Below are positions 3,494 to 8,935 of a stretch of DNA of 28,775 nt, one piece after another; position 1 is the stretch's first letter; the number at the start of each line of letters is the position of its first letter. The notes under the pieces are model-generated. The model was not told where the DNA came from. It saw only the letters and a program-made list of their open reading frames with translations, and did no database searches. Location of the stretch: positions 1 to 28,775 of IMG/VR virus record IMGVR_UViG_2778261515_000018; one strand, written 5' to 3'. A program made the position numbers and the translations under genes. Source of the DNA: a virus (lineage: Duplodnaviria; Heunggongvirae; Uroviricota; Caudoviricetes).

Positions 3494-3503
3494 ATGATTG
3501 TTC

Positions 3504-3674
3504 TCAGAATGGACACGGCCCAAGGAAATAACGCTGATTTAATACTTCAGTCTTTGCCGCATTTAAAAATACGCGAACACCTTCACGATCTCCCTTCTGG
3601 CGATACATTAACGCCTGCTGCGTGTACATGCGTCTCTGTAACTTGCTCTCCTTCACTGTGGTTGCAAGTGACAT
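3504..3674 (-). CDS. Hypothetical small protein (56 aa) immediately upstream of erf
   Basis: ATG at 3674 preceded by AAGGAG with 6-nt spacer; stop 10 nt before erf start. Overlaps the next ORF by about 90 nt in another frame. Confidence 0.4.
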   Translation of the reverse strand: MSLATTVKESKLQRRMYTQQALMYRQKGDREGVRVFLNAAKTEVLNQRYFLGPCPF

Positions 3675-3753
3675 GAATATCTCCTTCGTTACCGATTAAT
3701 TCTTTCATCTGACGAATGAATTCTTCGTCTGACCAGTTGTCTGTAAAACTCAT
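3583..3753 (-). CDS. Hypothetical small protein (56 aa), start coupled to kil-like stop
   Basis: ATG overlaps the stop of the kil-like ORF (ATGA). C-terminal part is low complexity and overlaps the 3504..3674 ORF, so one of the two may be non-coding over the shared stretch. Confidence 0.3.
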   Translation of the reverse strand: MSFTDNWSDEEFIRQMKELIGNEGDIHVTCNHSEGEQVTETHVHAAGVNVSPEGRS

Positions 3754-3902
3754 TTCCTGCGATACCACGGATGGTTGATAGCTGATTTCATCTCTTTATT
3801 TGCTTCAAGCCACATTTTGGAATCACCAATAAATCTGGCTATTACTGCTTTATTTTGTGCAGCGCGAAGCATCTGGTGATTAATGGCTATTTCATTGCGC
3901 AT
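3750..3902 (-). CDS. kil: Kil-like small protein (50 aa), possible host division inhibitor
   Basis: Hand-translated MRNEIAINHQMLRAAQNKAVIARFIGDSKMWLEANKEMKSAINHPWYRRK; GAGG RBS; directly downstream of cIII as in lambda. The IARFIGD motif resembles lambda Kil as I recall it (memory-based). Confidence 0.45.
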   Translation of the reverse strand: MRNEIAINHQMLRAAQNKAVIARFIGDSKMWLEANKEMKSAINHPWYRRK

Positions 3903-4018
3903 AACAAGACCTCAACTCTTTTCCATCCGTCACGTAATTTACGGGTGATTCGTTCAAGTAAAGATTCATTTAATTGGAAGGCACCCATGCGAGCGCCTCC
4001 CGCGATTGCGTAAATCAT
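3887..4018 (-). CDS. cIII: CIII, inhibitor of FtsH that stabilises CII
   Basis: Hand-translated MIYAIAGGARMGAFQLNESLLERITRKLRDGWKRVEVLLCAMK; the ESLLERITRKLRDGWKR core matches lambda CIII; AAGGAA RBS. Confidence 0.8.
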   Translation of the reverse strand: MIYAIAGGARMGAFQLNESLLERITRKLRDGWKRVEVLLCAMK

Positions 4019-4042
4019 GGGTGGTTCCTTATGTTGGTTTTA

Positions 4043-5011
4043 TTAGTAGGTTATTTTTGTTGCGAATACTTCGCCTTTTACGATGGCTGTTATGATATTT
4101 TTAGCAACATCTTCTGATGCGCCAACCTTGATAAGGTCAGCAAGTATTTTGTTATTTACTTCTTTCCGGTGAGCTTTATCCTTTGCTCTACGCTCTTCTT
4201 CTTCCTTGATTCTTTTTTCTTCTGCTATTCTGGCTTGCTCTTTTGCTTCAGCCTCGCGCCGGATTCGTTCAGCCTCCTCCTGTGCTTTTCGGCGTTCTGC
4301 TTCAATTGCCGCCTGCTTTTCTCTTTCAGCTCGTTCTGCTGCCTCTTTTGTTTCGCGCTGTGCTCGTTGCTCGGCTTCAATGCGTTCACGCTCTGCACGT
4401 TCCGCTGCGGCCTTAGCTTCTGCTTCTCGCCTTGCTGCTGCTTCAATTTCGGCTTTTGCCTTTGCTTCGGCTTCAGCTCTGGCTTTCTCTTCAGCTTCTC
4501 TTTTTAAGCGTTCTTCATGCTCTCGCTTTTCCTGCTCCGCTTTGAGTCTTGCCTCTTCTCTTTGGCGGTCAAATTCGCGATCCATCAAAATCGCTATTTC
4601 ATGGTCAGACTCAATTTGCTTTGCGAGAGCTTCAGCTGCTGCCTTAGCTTCTTCTTCAGCTTTAATTCGCGCCTGTTCCTCTTCATAATCAGTAAGAGGC
4701 TGGCGTGCCTTGGCTTTCAGCTCATCAAGGCGATCGCGCACTGTCTTGCGGTTGGCATCAATTAGCTTTGGAATTTCCTTCAGTTCAGCAACAAGGTCTT
4801 TTCCAAGACCATCGAGATATGTTTTCGTCTGCGCAACTTTATACGCCAGAGAAGCGATCTCCTTTCTGCCCTTTGCCGTTGTGATATCAGGCACAAAGGA
4901 CATAACTTCACGTTCAACCTTTTGAAGGATTTCTTCAATCTGGTCGGCAGACTGAAATACAGTCATTGCATTTGCTTTTTCAATAACAACTAAATCTGTT
5001 ACTTCACTCAT
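4043..5011 (-). CDS. Coiled-coil protein with a long Glu/Arg/Lys/Ala-rich helical repeat region (322 aa)
   Basis: Track ORF trimmed to the ATG at 5011 (GGAGG 4-5 nt upstream). About 150 residues of EAEAKAKAEIEAAARREAEAKAAAERAERER-type repeats. Confidence 0.7.
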   Translation of the reverse strand: MSEVTDLVVIEKANAMTVFQSADQIEEILQKVEREVMSFVPDITTAKGRKEIASLAYKVAQTKTYLDGLGKDLVAELKEIPKLIDANRKTVRDRLDELKAKARQPLTDYEEEQARIKAEEEAKAAAEALAKQIESDHEIAILMDREFDRQREEARLKAEQEKREHEERLKREAEEKARAEAEAKAKAEIEAAARREAEAKAAAERAERERIEAEQRAQRETKEAAERAEREKQAAIEAERRKAQEEAERIRREAEAKEQARIAEEKRIKEEEERRAKDKAHRKEVNNKILADLIKVGASEDVAKNIITAIVKGEVFATKITY

Positions 5012-5028
5012 ATATCCTCCGTCAAAAA

Positions 5029-5048
5029 AATTGCCCTCACACCGGAGG
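5029..5048 (-). terminator. Intrinsic terminator in the pL operon (tL-like)
   Basis: Minus-strand RNA GCCCUC CGGUGU GAGGGC followed by AAUUUUUUU, immediately upstream of the RBS of the 4043..5011 gene. Confidence 0.55.
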
Positions 5049-5145
5049 GCAAAGAAGATTTCCAATAATCAGAACAAGTCGGCTCCTGTTTGGTTACGAG
5101 CGACATTGCTCCGTGTATTCACTCGTTGGAATGAATACACAGTGC

Positions 5146-5334
5146 TTATTCGTCATGCATTTCAGGTAATTCTTCGTATTCGACGCCCCATACGAGTTTA
5201 CACCAACTAACTCGCTCATATCTTTTACAAAAATCAGACCACATAACTTGGGTTCCATCATGGTTTGTTATTACTTCTGTAATATCACCAGCACTAACAA
5301 AACTGGTATTAGAAGCAGTTATTTTTACTTTCAT
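5146..5334 (-). CDS. Hypothetical protein (62 aa)
   Basis: Track ORF; GGAG RBS; TAATG coupling with upstream ORF; A+T-rich. Confidence 0.5.
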   Translation of the reverse strand: MKVKITASNTSFVSAGDITEVITNHDGTQVMWSDFCKRYERVSWCKLVWGVEYEELPEMHDE

Positions 5335-5468
5335 TACTTATCTCCAAGAGCATTTGCAGCCTCTTTTGCTTTGTGAATCCATAGCAGAGCCATGTAGTAC
5401 ACAGCCTTTTCGTCGGCTCCTGTGATATCTTGCTCTGCCATCCATTTTGTAAATTCAACTGCGTTCAT
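5334..5468 (-). CDS. Hypothetical small protein (44 aa)
   Basis: Internal ATG of track ORF 5334..5588 with GAGGTG RBS (MNAVEFTKWMAEQDITGADEKAVYYMALLWIHKAKEAANALGDK). Confidence 0.4.
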   Translation of the reverse strand: MNAVEFTKWMAEQDITGADEKAVYYMALLWIHKAKEAANALGDK

Positions 5469-5514
5469 ATTCACCTCTGTTGTTTGTGCCAAAAATAAAG
5501 GCCGACTATGCGGC

Positions 5515-5985
5515 CTAGTAGAATACCCAATTTTCTGTTTCTTGGTTGTGTCCAAAGTTATATTCAATATCTGGTGTTGATGTATCAATATTTTTCATCC
5601 CATCAACAAGAGTTGATACAACAGCCAAATCTTGTTTTATCCTCATTAAATGGTATTTCTTCCGGCGCAATAAACTTTCAATAGCAAGTTTCTTCGTTGG
5701 GAATGCAAAAGATCTTTCTGCATTTTTTGCTACTTTCTTAATTGCATATCTATTTCTCCTTTGTTTCCATTCCTGTAACCACTGATTTGGTGCTGGTTTA
5801 AAATTAACAATCCAATGCGCAGGAACCAACCATGCATAATGCTCTGTCTGATGAAAAGCTATATATTGAAGTGCGAATATTTTGATTCCATCTTCTTCAA
5901 CTGTCGCTTGGAATCTCCAGAAAACAGGCATTCCCTCATGTTCAGTTTCTGATTCAGGAAAAGGTACGCTCCATGATTTTGTCAT
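5515..5985 (-). CDS. Hypothetical protein (156 aa), A+T-rich cargo gene in the pL operon
   Basis: Track ORF; GAGGTGA RBS; no recognisable motif; visibly lower G+C than neighbours. Confidence 0.6.
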   Translation of the reverse strand: MTKSWSVPFPESETEHEGMPVFWRFQATVEEDGIKIFALQYIAFHQTEHYAWLVPAHWIVNFKPAPNQWLQEWKQRRNRYAIKKVAKNAERSFAFPTKKLAIESLLRRKKYHLMRIKQDLAVVSTLVDGMKNIDTSTPDIEYNFGHNQETENWVFY

Positions 5986-6017
5986 ATCTCACCTCAAATA
6001 AGTGGTTTGCTTGCAAT

Positions 6018-6040
6018 AAAAAACCCGTCTTGGACGGGTT
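6018..6040 (-). terminator. Intrinsic terminator in the pL operon
   Basis: Minus-strand RNA CCCGUC CAAG ACGGG followed by UUUUUUAUU. Confidence 0.55.
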
Positions 6041-6042
6041 GA

Positions 6043-6321
6043 TTACCATTTCTTTTTGGGGTTTCGTTGATGGGCGTGATTGACAACTTTAAACATTGCA
6101 TCTCCACCAGAATTATTGTCAATCTCTGTCTTTTCGTGAGCTACTGCTAATTCAGCTGCTTTTTCACCCCTCACGGCAGCCAATCCTCCTTTTTCCAAAA
6201 TCTCTGCCTTTCTCTCCTCCCGGCTCTTGTTTTCCTTCTCTGCTCTTTCTGCCTTCCTGGCCTCTCTGCGGCGGTTCCTGCTATTATCTCTCGCTGGCTT
6301 GATTGTTATGCTAGGCTTCAT
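6043..6321 (-). CDS. Hypothetical highly charged protein (92 aa)
   Basis: Track ORF; GAGGT RBS; starts 3 nt after the N stop. Confidence 0.55.
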   Translation of the reverse strand: MKPSITIKPARDNSRNRRREARKAERAEKENKSREERKAEILEKGGLAAVRGEKAAELAVAHEKTEIDNNSGGDAMFKVVNHAHQRNPKKKW

Positions 6322-6323
6322 TT

Positions 6324-6632
6324 TTACCTCGCTGTAATTAGTTTTTGCCTTCTGTAACCAGCAGCATACAGTGCAACTTCAGGCAAACAAACGCTTCCGC
6401 TATTCGCATCTGTATTTGATTTGCTAATGATGCCGAGTGATATTGCTTTTTCAGAAATGCTTAAACGCTTTCTCGGGGCTTCCTGAACAGGTTCCTCACT
6501 GTCTGTGCCGAAGATCGAATCGATGATGTTGCATATAGCATCACGCTCGATAGCCAGCTTTCTGCGCCGCTCATGACGGCGAGTTTTGGCATTTCCTGCA
6601 AATGTTGATTTTCCGTACACGATTACCGTCAT
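6324..6632 (-). CDS. N: Antitermination protein N, P22 gp24-type
   Basis: Internal ATG of track ORF with GAGGAA RBS; N-terminal arginine-rich motif GNAKTRRHERRRKLAIERD matches the P22 N peptide; cognate P22-type boxB lies upstream. Confidence 0.85.
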   Translation of the reverse strand: MTVIVYGKSTFAGNAKTRRHERRRKLAIERDAICNIIDSIFGTDSEEPVQEAPRKRLSISEKAISLGIISKSNTDANSGSVCLPEVALYAAGYRRQKLITAR

Positions 6633-6751
6633 GATATTTTCCTCATGTGAAATGGCTTTGGTGGTAATGCGCCAGATGCTGATCTTCTGGTTGCTGTCGT
6701 TGCTGCTGCAATTCACATCACCGCCAAACCCATCTCGTTTGGTATCTGTTT

Positions 6752-6786
6752 GCGCTTTGTCAGCGCCCCATCGAAGTTAAAGAGCC
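6752..6786 (-). promoter_or_regulatory. nutL: nutL: boxB (6752..6766) and boxA (6776..6786)
   Basis: Minus-strand reading GGCTCTTTAAC (boxA-like), 9-nt spacer, GCGCTGACAAAGCGC (P22-type boxB hairpin), between pL and N. Confidence 0.8.
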
Positions 6787-6831
6787 TGCCAATCTGTTCC
6801 GTTTGGCTTCCAGCTTCCTGCTGATGTGTTT

Positions 6832-6894
6832 AGTATCACCGCTAGTGGTATTTGTGTCAACACCGCCAGAGATAATTTATCACCGCAGATGGTT
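6832..6894 (-). promoter_or_regulatory. pL promoter with OL1/OL2/OL3 operators (lambda-type)
   Basis: Minus strand: -35 TTGACA (6855..6860), 17-bp spacer, -10 GATACT (6832..6837). 17-bp operators OL1 6834..6850, OL2 6858..6874, OL3 6878..6894, near-identical to lambda as recalled. Confidence 0.85.
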
Positions 6895-7043
6895 ATCTGT
6901 ATGTTTTTTATATGGATTTATTTTTTGCAGGGGTGAATTGTTAGGTAGGTGAGGGATCAGAATTGCACTGTTTAGCAAGTTGTATCTATTAGTTTTCCAA
7001 TAAATACAAATGGTTATGTGTTGTTGGGAAAGGGGAGCGAGAG

Positions 7044-7071
7044 GCAAAGAAAACCCGGCGCTGAGGCCGGG
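7044..7071 (-). terminator. t_imm-like intrinsic terminator ending the cI operon
   Basis: Minus-strand RNA CCCGGC CUCAGC GCCGGG followed by UUUUCUUUG; matches the lambda t_imm sequence as recalled. Confidence 0.75.
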
Positions 7072-7085
7072 TTGTGAGGAATTAA

Positions 7086-7271
7086 TTACAGAGCAAAGAG
7101 ATCATGCATTAGGTTGCTGTTCATCTGGTGGTTGAATTGATACGGCTCCAATTCCTTCTTGATCTCGTTCAGGTGTTGTTCCGCTTTTTTTGCCAGATCG
7201 TGACCTTCTTGGATCTGGCTTTCCAACATCTTGTTGAGAATTTCCATCTCCGGTTGCAGATTCTTCGGCAT
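7086..7271 (-). CDS. Possible small overlapping ORF (61 aa) at the 3' end of the peptidase gene
   Basis: Alternative frame MPKNLQPEMEILNKMLESQIQEGHDLAKKAEQHLNEIKKELEPYQFNHQMNSNLMHDLFAL with GAGG about 9 nt upstream of ATG; could be a separate gene, a frameshift product or chance. Confidence 0.25.
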   Translation of the reverse strand: MPKNLQPEMEILNKMLESQIQEGHDLAKKAEQHLNEIKKELEPYQFNHQMNSNLMHDLFAL

Positions 7272-8103
7272 TAGCTTTTTCCTCTTTTTGTAGATACGTT
7301 GTACAATCAATAACCCTCGGCTTTCCAAATGTTGGAATGTCACCATTATGAATTTTGTCACAGAAAAGATTATAGAGTATTTCTGTTATACCTTTAGGAT
7401 GCTCAACACACTTGAAAAGTTCCTTGGCTTCTTTTCTGTCTATAACAAATCCATGTGAAGGATATGAGGCTATTAGTTTGCCTAACGCCCCTTCTTTTAG
7501 GCTGCTTGGTTTGTCTGCTAATCGTTGGCCATAAGTGATAGCTATACTCATTGCGCGCTGATGTTCACCAAGCTTTATTGGATCTATCTGTGCGGCCATA
7601 GGTGCTATCAACGCTTCTGTAAGTCTGGTCGCGATATCAGCAGACATTTTAGTACTTATCTGATTTTCGTATCTTATCTTAACAAGGTGTGAGTTAAACG
7701 CTGAAATAGAGCGTTCCTTTAGAGCATCAAGAGCTGTCATGATAGCTAAACCAGAACTCATCTCACCTATTTCATCGTTTTTTTTCAGTTGGATATCTAA
7801 TGGCCCAAGCTCCCCCATGTCACCAATAACAAGTTTATTGGCTGCTATAGCTATTAGTGTACCAGCACTTTTGCATGGTCCAACAACTAAAAGTGTTACC
7901 GTTTCATAATGGTGTTGTAGAGCTCTACCTATACGATAACCTGCATTTGGATCACCGCCATAAGTAGCAACACAGAAGATAACATTCTCTTTTAATCCAT
8001 GTTGTGACTTACGTTTCTTGATTTCATTGGTGAGATCAAGATAACCATCACGATGAATATCGCCTGTATACACATAAACATCATGATTTTCAATAGAATT
8101 CAT
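7102..8103 (-). CDS. Clp/SppA-fold (S14/S49-like) serine peptidase-like protein (333 aa) in the position of lambda rexAB
   Basis: Track ORF; AGGGAG RBS 8 nt upstream of ATG. Motifs ATYGGDPNAGYRIGRAL and LVVGPCKSAGTLIAIAANK align by eye with the ClpP oxyanion and catalytic-Ser regions; no obvious ClpP His motif, so a Ser/Lys dyad is possible. C-terminal ~70 residues low complexity. Same strand as cI, 115 bp downstream. Confidence 0.65.
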   Translation of the reverse strand: MNSIENHDVYVYTGDIHRDGYLDLTNEIKKRKSQHGLKENVIFCVATYGGDPNAGYRIGRALQHHYETVTLLVVGPCKSAGTLIAIAANKLVIGDMGELGPLDIQLKKNDEIGEMSSGLAIMTALDALKERSISAFNSHLVKIRYENQISTKMSADIATRLTEALIAPMAAQIDPIKLGEHQRAMSIAITYGQRLADKPSSLKEGALGKLIASYPSHGFVIDRKEAKELFKCVEHPKGITEILYNLFCDKIHNGDIPTFGKPRVIDCTTYLQKEEKANAEESATGDGNSQQDVGKPDPRRSRSGKKSGTTPERDQEGIGAVSIQPPDEQQPNA

Positions 8104-8218
8104 TCGTTAAACTCCCTGCTGTGGTTACGATGAATGTATTCATGTTGAAGCTAAGCTATAGCGGCTTGTCATCATCACCAATCTGGCGGAATTGACTGCT
8201 CATAAATCACAATTGGAA

Positions 8219-8935
<717 letters not shown>

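Follow-up and report, generated by a model that had tools for sequence, protein, structure and literature searches.

The subject of this analysis is a block of three small open reading frames (ORFs) at positions 5,029 to 6,040 of a 28,775-nucleotide (nt) stretch of Caudoviricetes DNA, IMG/VR record IMGVR_UViG_2778261515_000018 (the window, here and below, is that whole stretch). The ORFs lie on the minus strand and encode proteins of 156, 44 and 62 amino acids (aa), which are denoted ORF156, ORF44 and ORF62 (5515-5985, 5334-5468 and 5146-5334, respectively). A sequence-only reading of the window had located these ORFs correctly and placed them in the slot of the early-left (pL) operon where lambdoid phages carry variable accessory genes. 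This assignment is borne out: the lambda genes in the same interval are sieB and ral, Sf6 has genes 36, ral and 34 there, and 933W has nothing but L0079. The two minus-strand intrinsic terminators said to bracket the ORFs are also found (6040..6022 and 5052..5031; the second had been given, slightly short, as 5029..5048), but the picture of a single cargo cluster between them does not hold. The slot consists of three independently assorting cassettes (ORF156, ORF44 and ORF62), each with its own distribution among phages, with conserved junctions and a third, internal terminator at 5516..5499. The 3' terminator, read earlier as one of the brackets, is no accessory of a cluster: it is tL2a of lambda, the 3' end of the small RNA (sRNA) PreS, and the hairpin lies immediately 5' of PreS. 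PreS and its terminator, the non-coding part of the block, are already known. The features of the region, from the 3' to the 5' end of the transcript, are listed here.

5024..5111, minus strand: PreS (LPR1) sRNA, 88 nt, with the stem of the terminator tL2a at 5031-5052 and the U-tail at 5024-5030.
5112..5139, minus strand: stem-loop of 12 base pairs (bp), immediately 5' of the PreS +1.
5146..5334, minus strand: ORF62, 62 aa; PHROG 10407 (function unknown), expectation value E = 9e-46.
5334..5468, minus strand: ORF44, 44 aa; PHROG 24660 (function unknown), E = 6.5e-35.
5477..5516, minus strand: junction element made up of a terminator hairpin, AGGCCGCATAGTCGGCCT (5499-5516), a T-run and a linker ending in ...TTTGGCACAAACAACAG.
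5515..6011, minus strand: ORF156 cassette, a 26-nt leader with a ribosome-binding site (5986-6011) followed by the 156-aa gene (5515-5985).
6012..6040, minus strand: intrinsic terminator predicted by a consensus scan (stem 6022-6040, T-run 6012-6021), downstream of a Nun-like gene.

The 1.5 kb around the block are 100% identical to the chromosome of Escherichia coli UMNK88, as found by a search of 5,426 complete E. coli genomes. At this locus, RefSeq annotates a lambdoid prophage that adjoins dsdC and torI and carries, on its minus strand, N, several hypothetical genes, cIII, kil, the ERF recombinase gene and the gene for the anti-RecBCD protein Abc2; the element that hosts the block is a P22/Sf6-like prophage of this strain. 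In the window, the 103-aa product of 6324-6635 (minus strand) is an N antiterminator (Pfam PF25694, E = 2e-38), and a pL-like promoter is predicted at 6860..6832 by a consensus scan. Because N, cIII, kil, erf and abc2 surround the block and a pL promoter is predicted upstream, the block is placed within the early-left operon, with a layout homologous to those of Sf6 and lambda.

The joints between the cassettes are short conserved sequences, namely the ORF156 leader, the terminator/linker at 5477-5516 and the stretch, labeled bsq4 in Sf6, that contains PreS. The distributions of the cassettes among the E. coli genomes differ widely: the ORF156 block, with its limits exactly at 5515..6011, is present in 589-623 genomes (~11%) at 95-99% identity, ORF62 in about 100 (~2%), and ORF44 is rare (about 27-30; ~0.5%). 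The whole arrangement occurs in only four genomes; 2,241 match the query, most of them only at the PreS piece (120 nt, 5025-5145), which is the most widespread part of the region. The check for presence or absence proposed along with the sequence-only reading, therefore, shows a polymorphic block rather than a core one.

The joints can be traced in detail. In the window and in CurroJimenez, the stop codon of ORF156 lies inside the terminator/linker motif AGGCCGCATAGTCGGCC-TTTATTTTTGGCAyAAAyAACAG, a variant of which follows ral in lambda. Of 93 viral contigs with PreS, 48 contain the motif CCTTTATTTTTGGCAyAAAyAACAG; it abuts the PreS hairpin in 39 of the 48, and in the other nine a cassette of 320-495 nt is inserted right after AACAG. 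Such inserts begin with a ribosome-binding site, and the ORF44-ORF62 pair is one of them. Across 136 surveyed loci, there are dozens of N-to-PreS architectures, which are built from ral, sieB, Sf6 genes 34 and 36, Y8K6, a pentapeptide-repeat gene, ORF156, ORF44, ORF62 and other genes, and are followed by downstream modules of four kinds (ea10, gp17, a Sf6 gene-33-like gene or cIII). ORF156 is found behind four different N types; in 933W, H-19B and PA28, it comes directly after N, with no terminator between them and with its stop codon 8 nt from the PreS hairpin, and in Pectobacterium odoriferum it adjoins xis and int. A boundary-sequence mode of mosaicism has been proposed for lambdoid phages (PMC3029335), and the mosaicism of the slot is of this mode.

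Salmonella P22-like prophages carry pentapeptide-repeat proteins (PF00805) in the same N-to-PreS slot (loci L010 and L011, 2980-3669 and 3176-3634, respectively). Some pentapeptide-repeat proteins are DNA mimics, and these genes are possibly another counter-defence cargo of the slot.

All three ORFs of the block are genuine protein-coding genes under purifying selection, and each is preceded by a good Shine-Dalgarno sequence. ORF156 differs from the 933W and CurroJimenez alleles by 8-10 synonymous changes and a single non-synonymous one (ratio of non-synonymous to synonymous rates, dN/dS, 0.02-0.03); compared with homologues that are 63-71% identical, the proportion of non-synonymous differences (pN) is 0.18-0.24, and that of synonymous differences (pS) is saturated at 0.79-0.90. 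For ORF44 and its homologue in phage KKP 3828, pN is 0.21 and pS 0.88, and dN/dS is 0.24 for ORF62 and a 73% identical Salmonella homologue. Full-length homologues of the ORFs of the block reach down to 55% identity; those of ORF156 are found in Escherichia, Cronobacter, Pectobacterium, Brenneria, Rosenbergiella and other genera. In the divergent homologues, the sense frames alone stay open, and the plus-strand (antisense) ORFs of the block are not conserved. Given that the block is polymorphic and its ORFs carry these coding signatures, it is neither a vertically conserved core segment nor a set of non-coding frames, the two outcomes that would have spoken against the sequence-only reading. 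The claim that the block is more A+T-rich than N or cIII applies to ORF156 (35.9% G+C) and ORF62 (35.4%) but not to ORF44 (43.0%), the values for N, cIII and the whole window being 45.2%, 43.9% and 47.8%, respectively.

Searches of the three proteins against Pfam (E up to 1), NCBIfam and PADLOC give no significant match, in agreement with the earlier statement that they contain no recognisable motifs, although PHROG families with unknown function do match. None of the three matches the Ral family profile, PF11058, within the same Pfam limit; tblastn with lambda Ral as the seed finds Ral in other slots and none in the window, and lambda SieB as the seed has no match in the window. The profile and structure searches suggested with the sequence-only reading, then, yield PHROG families and a confident model of ORF156 but no Pfam family and no relative in the PDB.

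ORF156 is 99% identical to L0079 of 933W and matches PHROG 1636 (function unknown) with E = 7.3e-112, residues 1-156 aligning with profile positions 1-156. A profile search of 1.8 billion representative proteins yields 87 relatives, mostly of 130-155 aa. With an alignment that includes 30 distant relatives, the AlphaFold2 model of ORF156 is confident (predicted local distance difference test score, pLDDT, 95.3; predicted template modeling score, pTM, 0.82); with close homologues alone, the pLDDT is 54, and it rises to 95 when the 30 distant relatives are added. In the model, a three-stranded antiparallel sheet (residues 19-55) is accompanied by two short helices, one further short strand (83-86) and a helix of 33 residues (98-130). 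A Foldseek comparison of this model with the PDB gives no match below E = 0.6, and the matches in BFVD, with E down to 4e-7, are only to uncharacterised proteins of unrelated phages (of Erwinia, Tenacibaculum, Achromobacter, Rhizobium, Delftia and Cellulophaga). ORF156 is a member of a wider, phage-only superfamily. Of three distant relatives located in phage contigs, two follow recombination or replication genes (YqaJ, RdgC, Dam, YopX, AAA_24), and an integrase gene lies close downstream of one; the settings of the distant relatives are early, recombination or replication regions of phages unrelated to each other. In an alignment of 51 sequences, G33, K87 and A101 are the only residues near-invariant across the superfamily, which argues against an enzyme. 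An assignment to GIY-YIG/UPF0213 was considered and rejected: the lead, 1zg2, came with E = 0.42, and ORF156 does not combine a significant sequence or fold match with a conserved catalytic Tyr, Arg and Glu. The literature on L0079, tL2a and the RefSeq protein accessions yielded nothing useful.

The two smaller genes are closely linked in the window, where the stop codon of ORF44 overlaps the start codon of ORF62 by one base (TAATG). For ORF44, a homologue with 61% identity is the product of an early gene, annotated as 45 aa, in the lytic Salmonella phage KKP 3828. Homologues of ORF62 that are 66-73% identical are found in Salmonella P22-like phages at the same position, just before PreS and cIII. 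In 12 of 12 loci examined, the ATG of ORF62 overlaps the stop codon of the upstream partner by one base; this partner is ORF44 in three loci and a 95-99-aa gene of the Y8K6 family (PF27050) in nine. The DNA common to the ORF62 cassettes reaches ~21 nt into the upstream gene, and it is because of this recombination joint that ORF44 and the Y8K6 proteins, otherwise unrelated, both end in ...ALGDK. The possibility that ORF44 is a truncated Y8K6 protein was rejected, only the last 7-15 residues, those of the joint, being alike. With low confidence, ORF62 probably acts jointly with the upstream gene to which its translation is coupled, ORF44 in this case.

Outside the coding regions, the block closely follows what is known from lambda. 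PreS (LPR1) is an Hfq-dependent sRNA encoded between ea10 and ral, with its 3' end at tL2a (PMC12197685; bioRxiv 10.1101/2024.10.31.621285); it is ~88 nt long, is processed to ~68 nt and is produced during the lytic cycle, whereas lysogens do not make it. For the lambda RNA, Hfq binding of the 88/68-nt species, seed-dependent regulation of dnaN and a phage phenotype have been reported: PreS raises translation of host dnaN and supports phage DNA replication (bioRxiv 10.1101/2024.10.31.621285). Relative to lambda LPR1, the copy in the window has three substitutions and an additional T (identity at 84 of 87 aligned positions, one 1-nt indel), which is within the limits that the discoverers set for conservation (at least 92% identity to lambda LPR1 and at most three gaps). 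The 18-nt seed, UGUUCUGAUUAUUGGAAA, which was removed in the lpr1-delta-seed mutant and was deduced here from primers P970 and P971 of the preprint, is identical in the window. The 3' end is a Rho-independent terminator in the early-left operon (5052..5031 on the minus strand in the consensus scan; 8 pairs and a T7 tail). The PreS stretch is near-invariant in lambda, where it lies between ral and ea10, and in 933W and H-19B, whatever genes adjoin it, and the Sf6 record labels it 'bsq4; boundary sequence' and 'terminator, homology to phage lambda, tL2A'. In the versions of PreS from Salmonella, an internal stem carries a compensatory change, from A-U to G-C. An Rfam scan of 3500-8500 finds no family, PreS being evidently absent from Rfam 15.

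The hairpin at 5112..5139 is real and folds strongly, although it has 12 pairs and not nine, as had been claimed. The +1 of LPR1, taken from the cloning and deletion primers of the preprint, is at GAGCAATG / GAGCAATGTCGCTCG, directly after the hairpin, which is outside LPR1 as cloned and deleted by the discoverers and is not mentioned in the preprint. The 131-nt stretch 5020-5150 folds with z = -5.2, none of 200 shuffles being as good. In 131 copies of PreS, taken from reference phages and viral contigs, exactly this position is filled by one of four hairpins that are unrelated in sequence and all have a folding free energy (dG) of -12 to -16 kcal/mol. Such conservation of structure without conservation of sequence suggests a processing or stability element, and the hairpin may mark or protect the processing site that forms the 5' end of PreS, or may stabilise the upstream mRNA. 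Homologous hairpin positions are found in ES18 (L019), mEp043 (L020) and two further loci (L067 and L099). In HK022 (NC_002166, ~26.6-27.7 kb), the copy of IS903 that lies between nun and PreS interrupts the hairpin in its 5' arm and leaves the PreS core intact. The AgvB and AsxR anti-sRNAs (Tree et al. 2014) were considered for the hairpin and terminator and rejected, as those lie at the PR' moron site and not in pL.

With respect to transcription, the terminator at 6040..6022 has 8 pairs, 5 of them G-C, a loop of 3 and a T6 tail (TTTTTATT), and, judged by position, would be where pL transcription first ends in the absence of N modification, by analogy with tL1 of lambda. It is outside the ORF156 cassette, given that homology to other phages begins at 6011, and 933W and H-19B have no terminator at the equivalent point. 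The consensus scan places a third minus-strand terminator, 5516..5499, between ORF156 and ORF44; altogether, terminator-like sites number 10 in the 5-kb region, compared with 4.5 +/- 1.9 in shuffled sequences. No minus-strand sigma-70-like site is detected in 5000-6100 by a simple consensus scan, and the distance from the upstream terminator to the ATG of ORF156 is only 36 nt. The lack of a pL-strand promoter in the block, together with the location of the lytic-only PreS on the same transcript, suggests N-dependent delayed-early expression: situated on the pL strand behind a terminator, ORF156, ORF44 and ORF62 would be transcribed only when N-modified RNA polymerase reads through, N-mediated read-through being needed at both 6022-6040 and 5499-5516, and would belong to the delayed-early class in the lytic cycle. 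PreS would then arise from this transcript as well, with its 5' end directly after the structurally conserved hairpin.

Silas et al. refer to the interval between N and tL2a as the 'ral accessory region'; its genes include the anti-restriction gene ral and orf184, the trigger of the gop-beta-cII abortive system (bioRxiv 10.1101/2023.04.06.535777). Of 80 IMG/VR contigs in which the N-to-PreS slot is complete, 32 carry ral and 13 carry ORF156, and none of these 45 has both (Fisher p = 0.001, not corrected for relatedness); each of the two genes combines freely with other cassettes, and both are found on the same N and downstream backgrounds. This exclusivity fits functional equivalence and, equally well, positional alleles with common junctions. 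Of the three genes, ORF156 is tentatively the best candidate for a takeover or counter-defence role, as an alternative to Ral.

Taken together, the interval is very probably an exchangeable accessory slot of the pL operon, delimited by N and the Nun-like gene on one side and by PreS and tL2a on the other, with three cassette genes that would depend on N for expression, would share their transcript with PreS and, at low confidence, would encode takeover or counter-defence products. The functional part of this reading comes from the company that the genes keep, that is, Ral in the same slot and Abc2, Kil and CIII nearby; the three products might tentatively be pictured as small, non-enzymatic binding proteins for host takeover or counter-defence. 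Several points weigh against it. Homology provides no function, searches of Pfam, NCBIfam, PADLOC and the PDB, by sequence and by fold, having come back empty; the supplements searched for the screen of 200 accessory genes by Silas et al. contain none of the three proteins; the exclusivity of ral and ORF156 ignores relatedness and could reflect positional alleles, not functional equivalents; and the missing internal promoter is the outcome of a simple consensus scan. A more specific version has ORF156 as a counter-defence protein that had gone unrecognised and whose fold lacks any solved relative; it would follow N as the earliest of the delayed-early products, would bind a host target without catalysis and would serve as the functional alternative to Ral in those Shiga toxin (Stx)-converting and other lambdoid phages that lack ral; in this fully specified form, the proposal is rather unlikely.

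Other explanations of the block deserve to be weighed against the accessory-slot reading. A moron, in the sense of Juhala et al. 2000, is reportedly a promoter, a gene and a terminator inserted between phage genes, and the ORFs could be morons or lysogenic-conversion genes that are self-contained, are expressed from the repressed prophage and protect the lysogen by superinfection exclusion or abortive infection, as lambda sieB and rex do. The terminators on both sides of ORF156, its foreign composition and the presence of sieB in the same slot of lambda would all agree with this, but the block contains no promoter-like site on the minus strand, the upstream terminator is a mere 36 nt from the start codon of ORF156, and in 933W and H-19B the gene follows N without an intervening terminator. 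Moreover, sieB is on the strand opposite to pL and these genes are on the pL strand, PADLOC finds no match, and PreS, on the same transcript, is lytic-only, which makes the moron explanation quite unlikely; of the roles suggested with the sequence-only reading (anti-restriction, exclusion and host takeover), all of them plausible, exclusion in the lysogen is the least likely, since no promoter was found. That the ORFs are chance open frames in an A+T-rich spacer, as their short length, low G+C content and lack of Pfam domains might suggest, is refuted by the conservation data and has virtually no probability left: synonymous changes far outnumber non-synonymous ones in all three, homologues are conserved in full length across genera, each ORF has a PHROG family, ORF156 has a confident fold prediction, and the antisense frames are not conserved.

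Two further alternatives concern parts of the block. ORF44 and ORF62 could form a toxin-antitoxin-like or otherwise obligate pair, rather than two independent accessory genes. Both genes are small, they overlap by one base as expected of small co-transcribed genes, ORF62 is coupled to an upstream partner, ORF44 or Y8K6, in every locus examined, and the partners share a C-terminus. However, this C-terminus is explained by the recombination joint, and because the joint lies inside the upstream gene, the coupling may simply travel along with the ORF62 cassette, with no functional meaning required; in addition, searches of Pfam, NCBIfam, PADLOC and PDB sequences link neither protein to a family of toxins, antitoxins or defence proteins, and the ORF44 homologue of KKP 3828 has no ORF62-like gene after it. 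An obligate pair is, on balance, rather improbable. For the hairpin and terminator, retention solely as boundary DNA for homologous recombination, with no RNA function, would agree with the bsq4 label in Sf6, with the different modules that flank this stretch on both sides and with the established boundary-sequence model (PMC3029335). This is very unlikely, given the Hfq-bound RNA, the seed-dependent regulation of dnaN and the phage phenotype in lambda (bioRxiv 10.1101/2024.10.31.621285), where, according to the same preprint, the absence of an RNA or phage phenotype in seed mutants is already contradicted, and given the conserved structure, seen both in the compensatory change of the internal stem and in the four unrelated hairpins at one position. 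The boundary and RNA roles are, in any case, compatible.

What is new under the accessory-slot reading is the three uncharacterised genes, in a slot that was already known for anti-restriction and exclusion genes. The layout of the block is ordinary, and its largest gene alone, ORF156, is a fair candidate for follow-up. ORF156 stands out by its frequency (~11% of the complete genomes of E. coli), by its presence in 933W and H-19B, which are reference Stx phages, by the lack of a Pfam family and of a solved structural relative, by its membership in a phage-only superfamily and by its exclusivity with ral. Being common, structurally orphan and alternating with ral, it is worth testing, and screens for anti-defence genes of Shiga-toxin phages could include it at little cost as a well-defined candidate. 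For the biogenesis of PreS, the abutting hairpin suggests a processing or stabilising element beyond the published description of this sRNA.

Several neighbours of the block merit mention in their own right. Directly 3' of N (6324-6635), the minus strand at 6043-6321 encodes a 92-aa homologue of the HK022 transcription-termination and exclusion protein Nun. It matches PHROG 5632 (E = 1.5e-29) and, in BLASTP, HK022 Nun itself (E = 1e-10), in an alignment that includes the arginine-rich motif SRNRRREAR and a nearly identical C-terminus, VVNHAHQRNPKKKW; tblastn of this protein against phages gives no match, probably through low-complexity masking. A tandem of an N antiterminator and a Nun-like gene in one pL operon is unusual, and phage PA28 possibly has a similar arrangement. 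Just downstream of PreS, at 4043-5011 (minus strand), lies a gene for a 322-aa, coiled-coil-like protein rich in Glu, Lys, Ala and Arg (PHROG 1376), a homologue of Sf6 gene 33 that is wrongly named 'TolA' in some records; such genes alternate with ea10 and gp17 as the first gene past PreS. Between the repressor gene and pL, a gene at 7102-8103 (minus strand), followed by a terminator at 7073..7052, encodes a 333-aa protein named 'SDH family Clp fold serine proteinase' in RefSeq and has the same position as rexA and rexB of lambda. In the lysogen, this gene presumably shares a transcript with the repressor, and it is a candidate for a defence gene carried by the prophage.

The SieB system is antisense to pL and has its own promoter; the block has neither a SieB match nor conserved plus-strand ORFs. 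Morons resemble the block in their foreign composition (35-36% G+C in ORF156 and ORF62 versus 45-48% around them), in the insertion between conserved genes and in the downstream terminators (5516..5499 and 5052..5031), but here an own promoter is not detected by the consensus scan and the genes, on the operon strand, would depend on read-through. The RNA encoded in the window resembles lambda PreS/LPR1 in its 88-nt length, identical seed, GC-rich terminator hairpin with a U-tail and place in pL, and differs in its neighbours, ORF62 instead of ral upstream and the Sf6 gene-33-like gene instead of ea10 downstream; the window copy is known from sequence, and Hfq binding, expression and dnaN regulation are lambda data. 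ORF156 is a 99% identical homologue of 933W L0079 and matches the PHROG profile over its whole length, but the settings differ: L0079 lies directly between N and the PreS hairpin, whereas ORF156 follows N, the Nun-like gene and a terminator and is separated from PreS by two further genes. The three proteins are unrelated in sequence to Ral, SieB and orf184, the last of which was also considered for the ORFs of the window and proved to be a different protein, but the block shares with the lambdoid N-to-tL2a region its position, its flanking landmarks and the mosaic behaviour of its cassettes.

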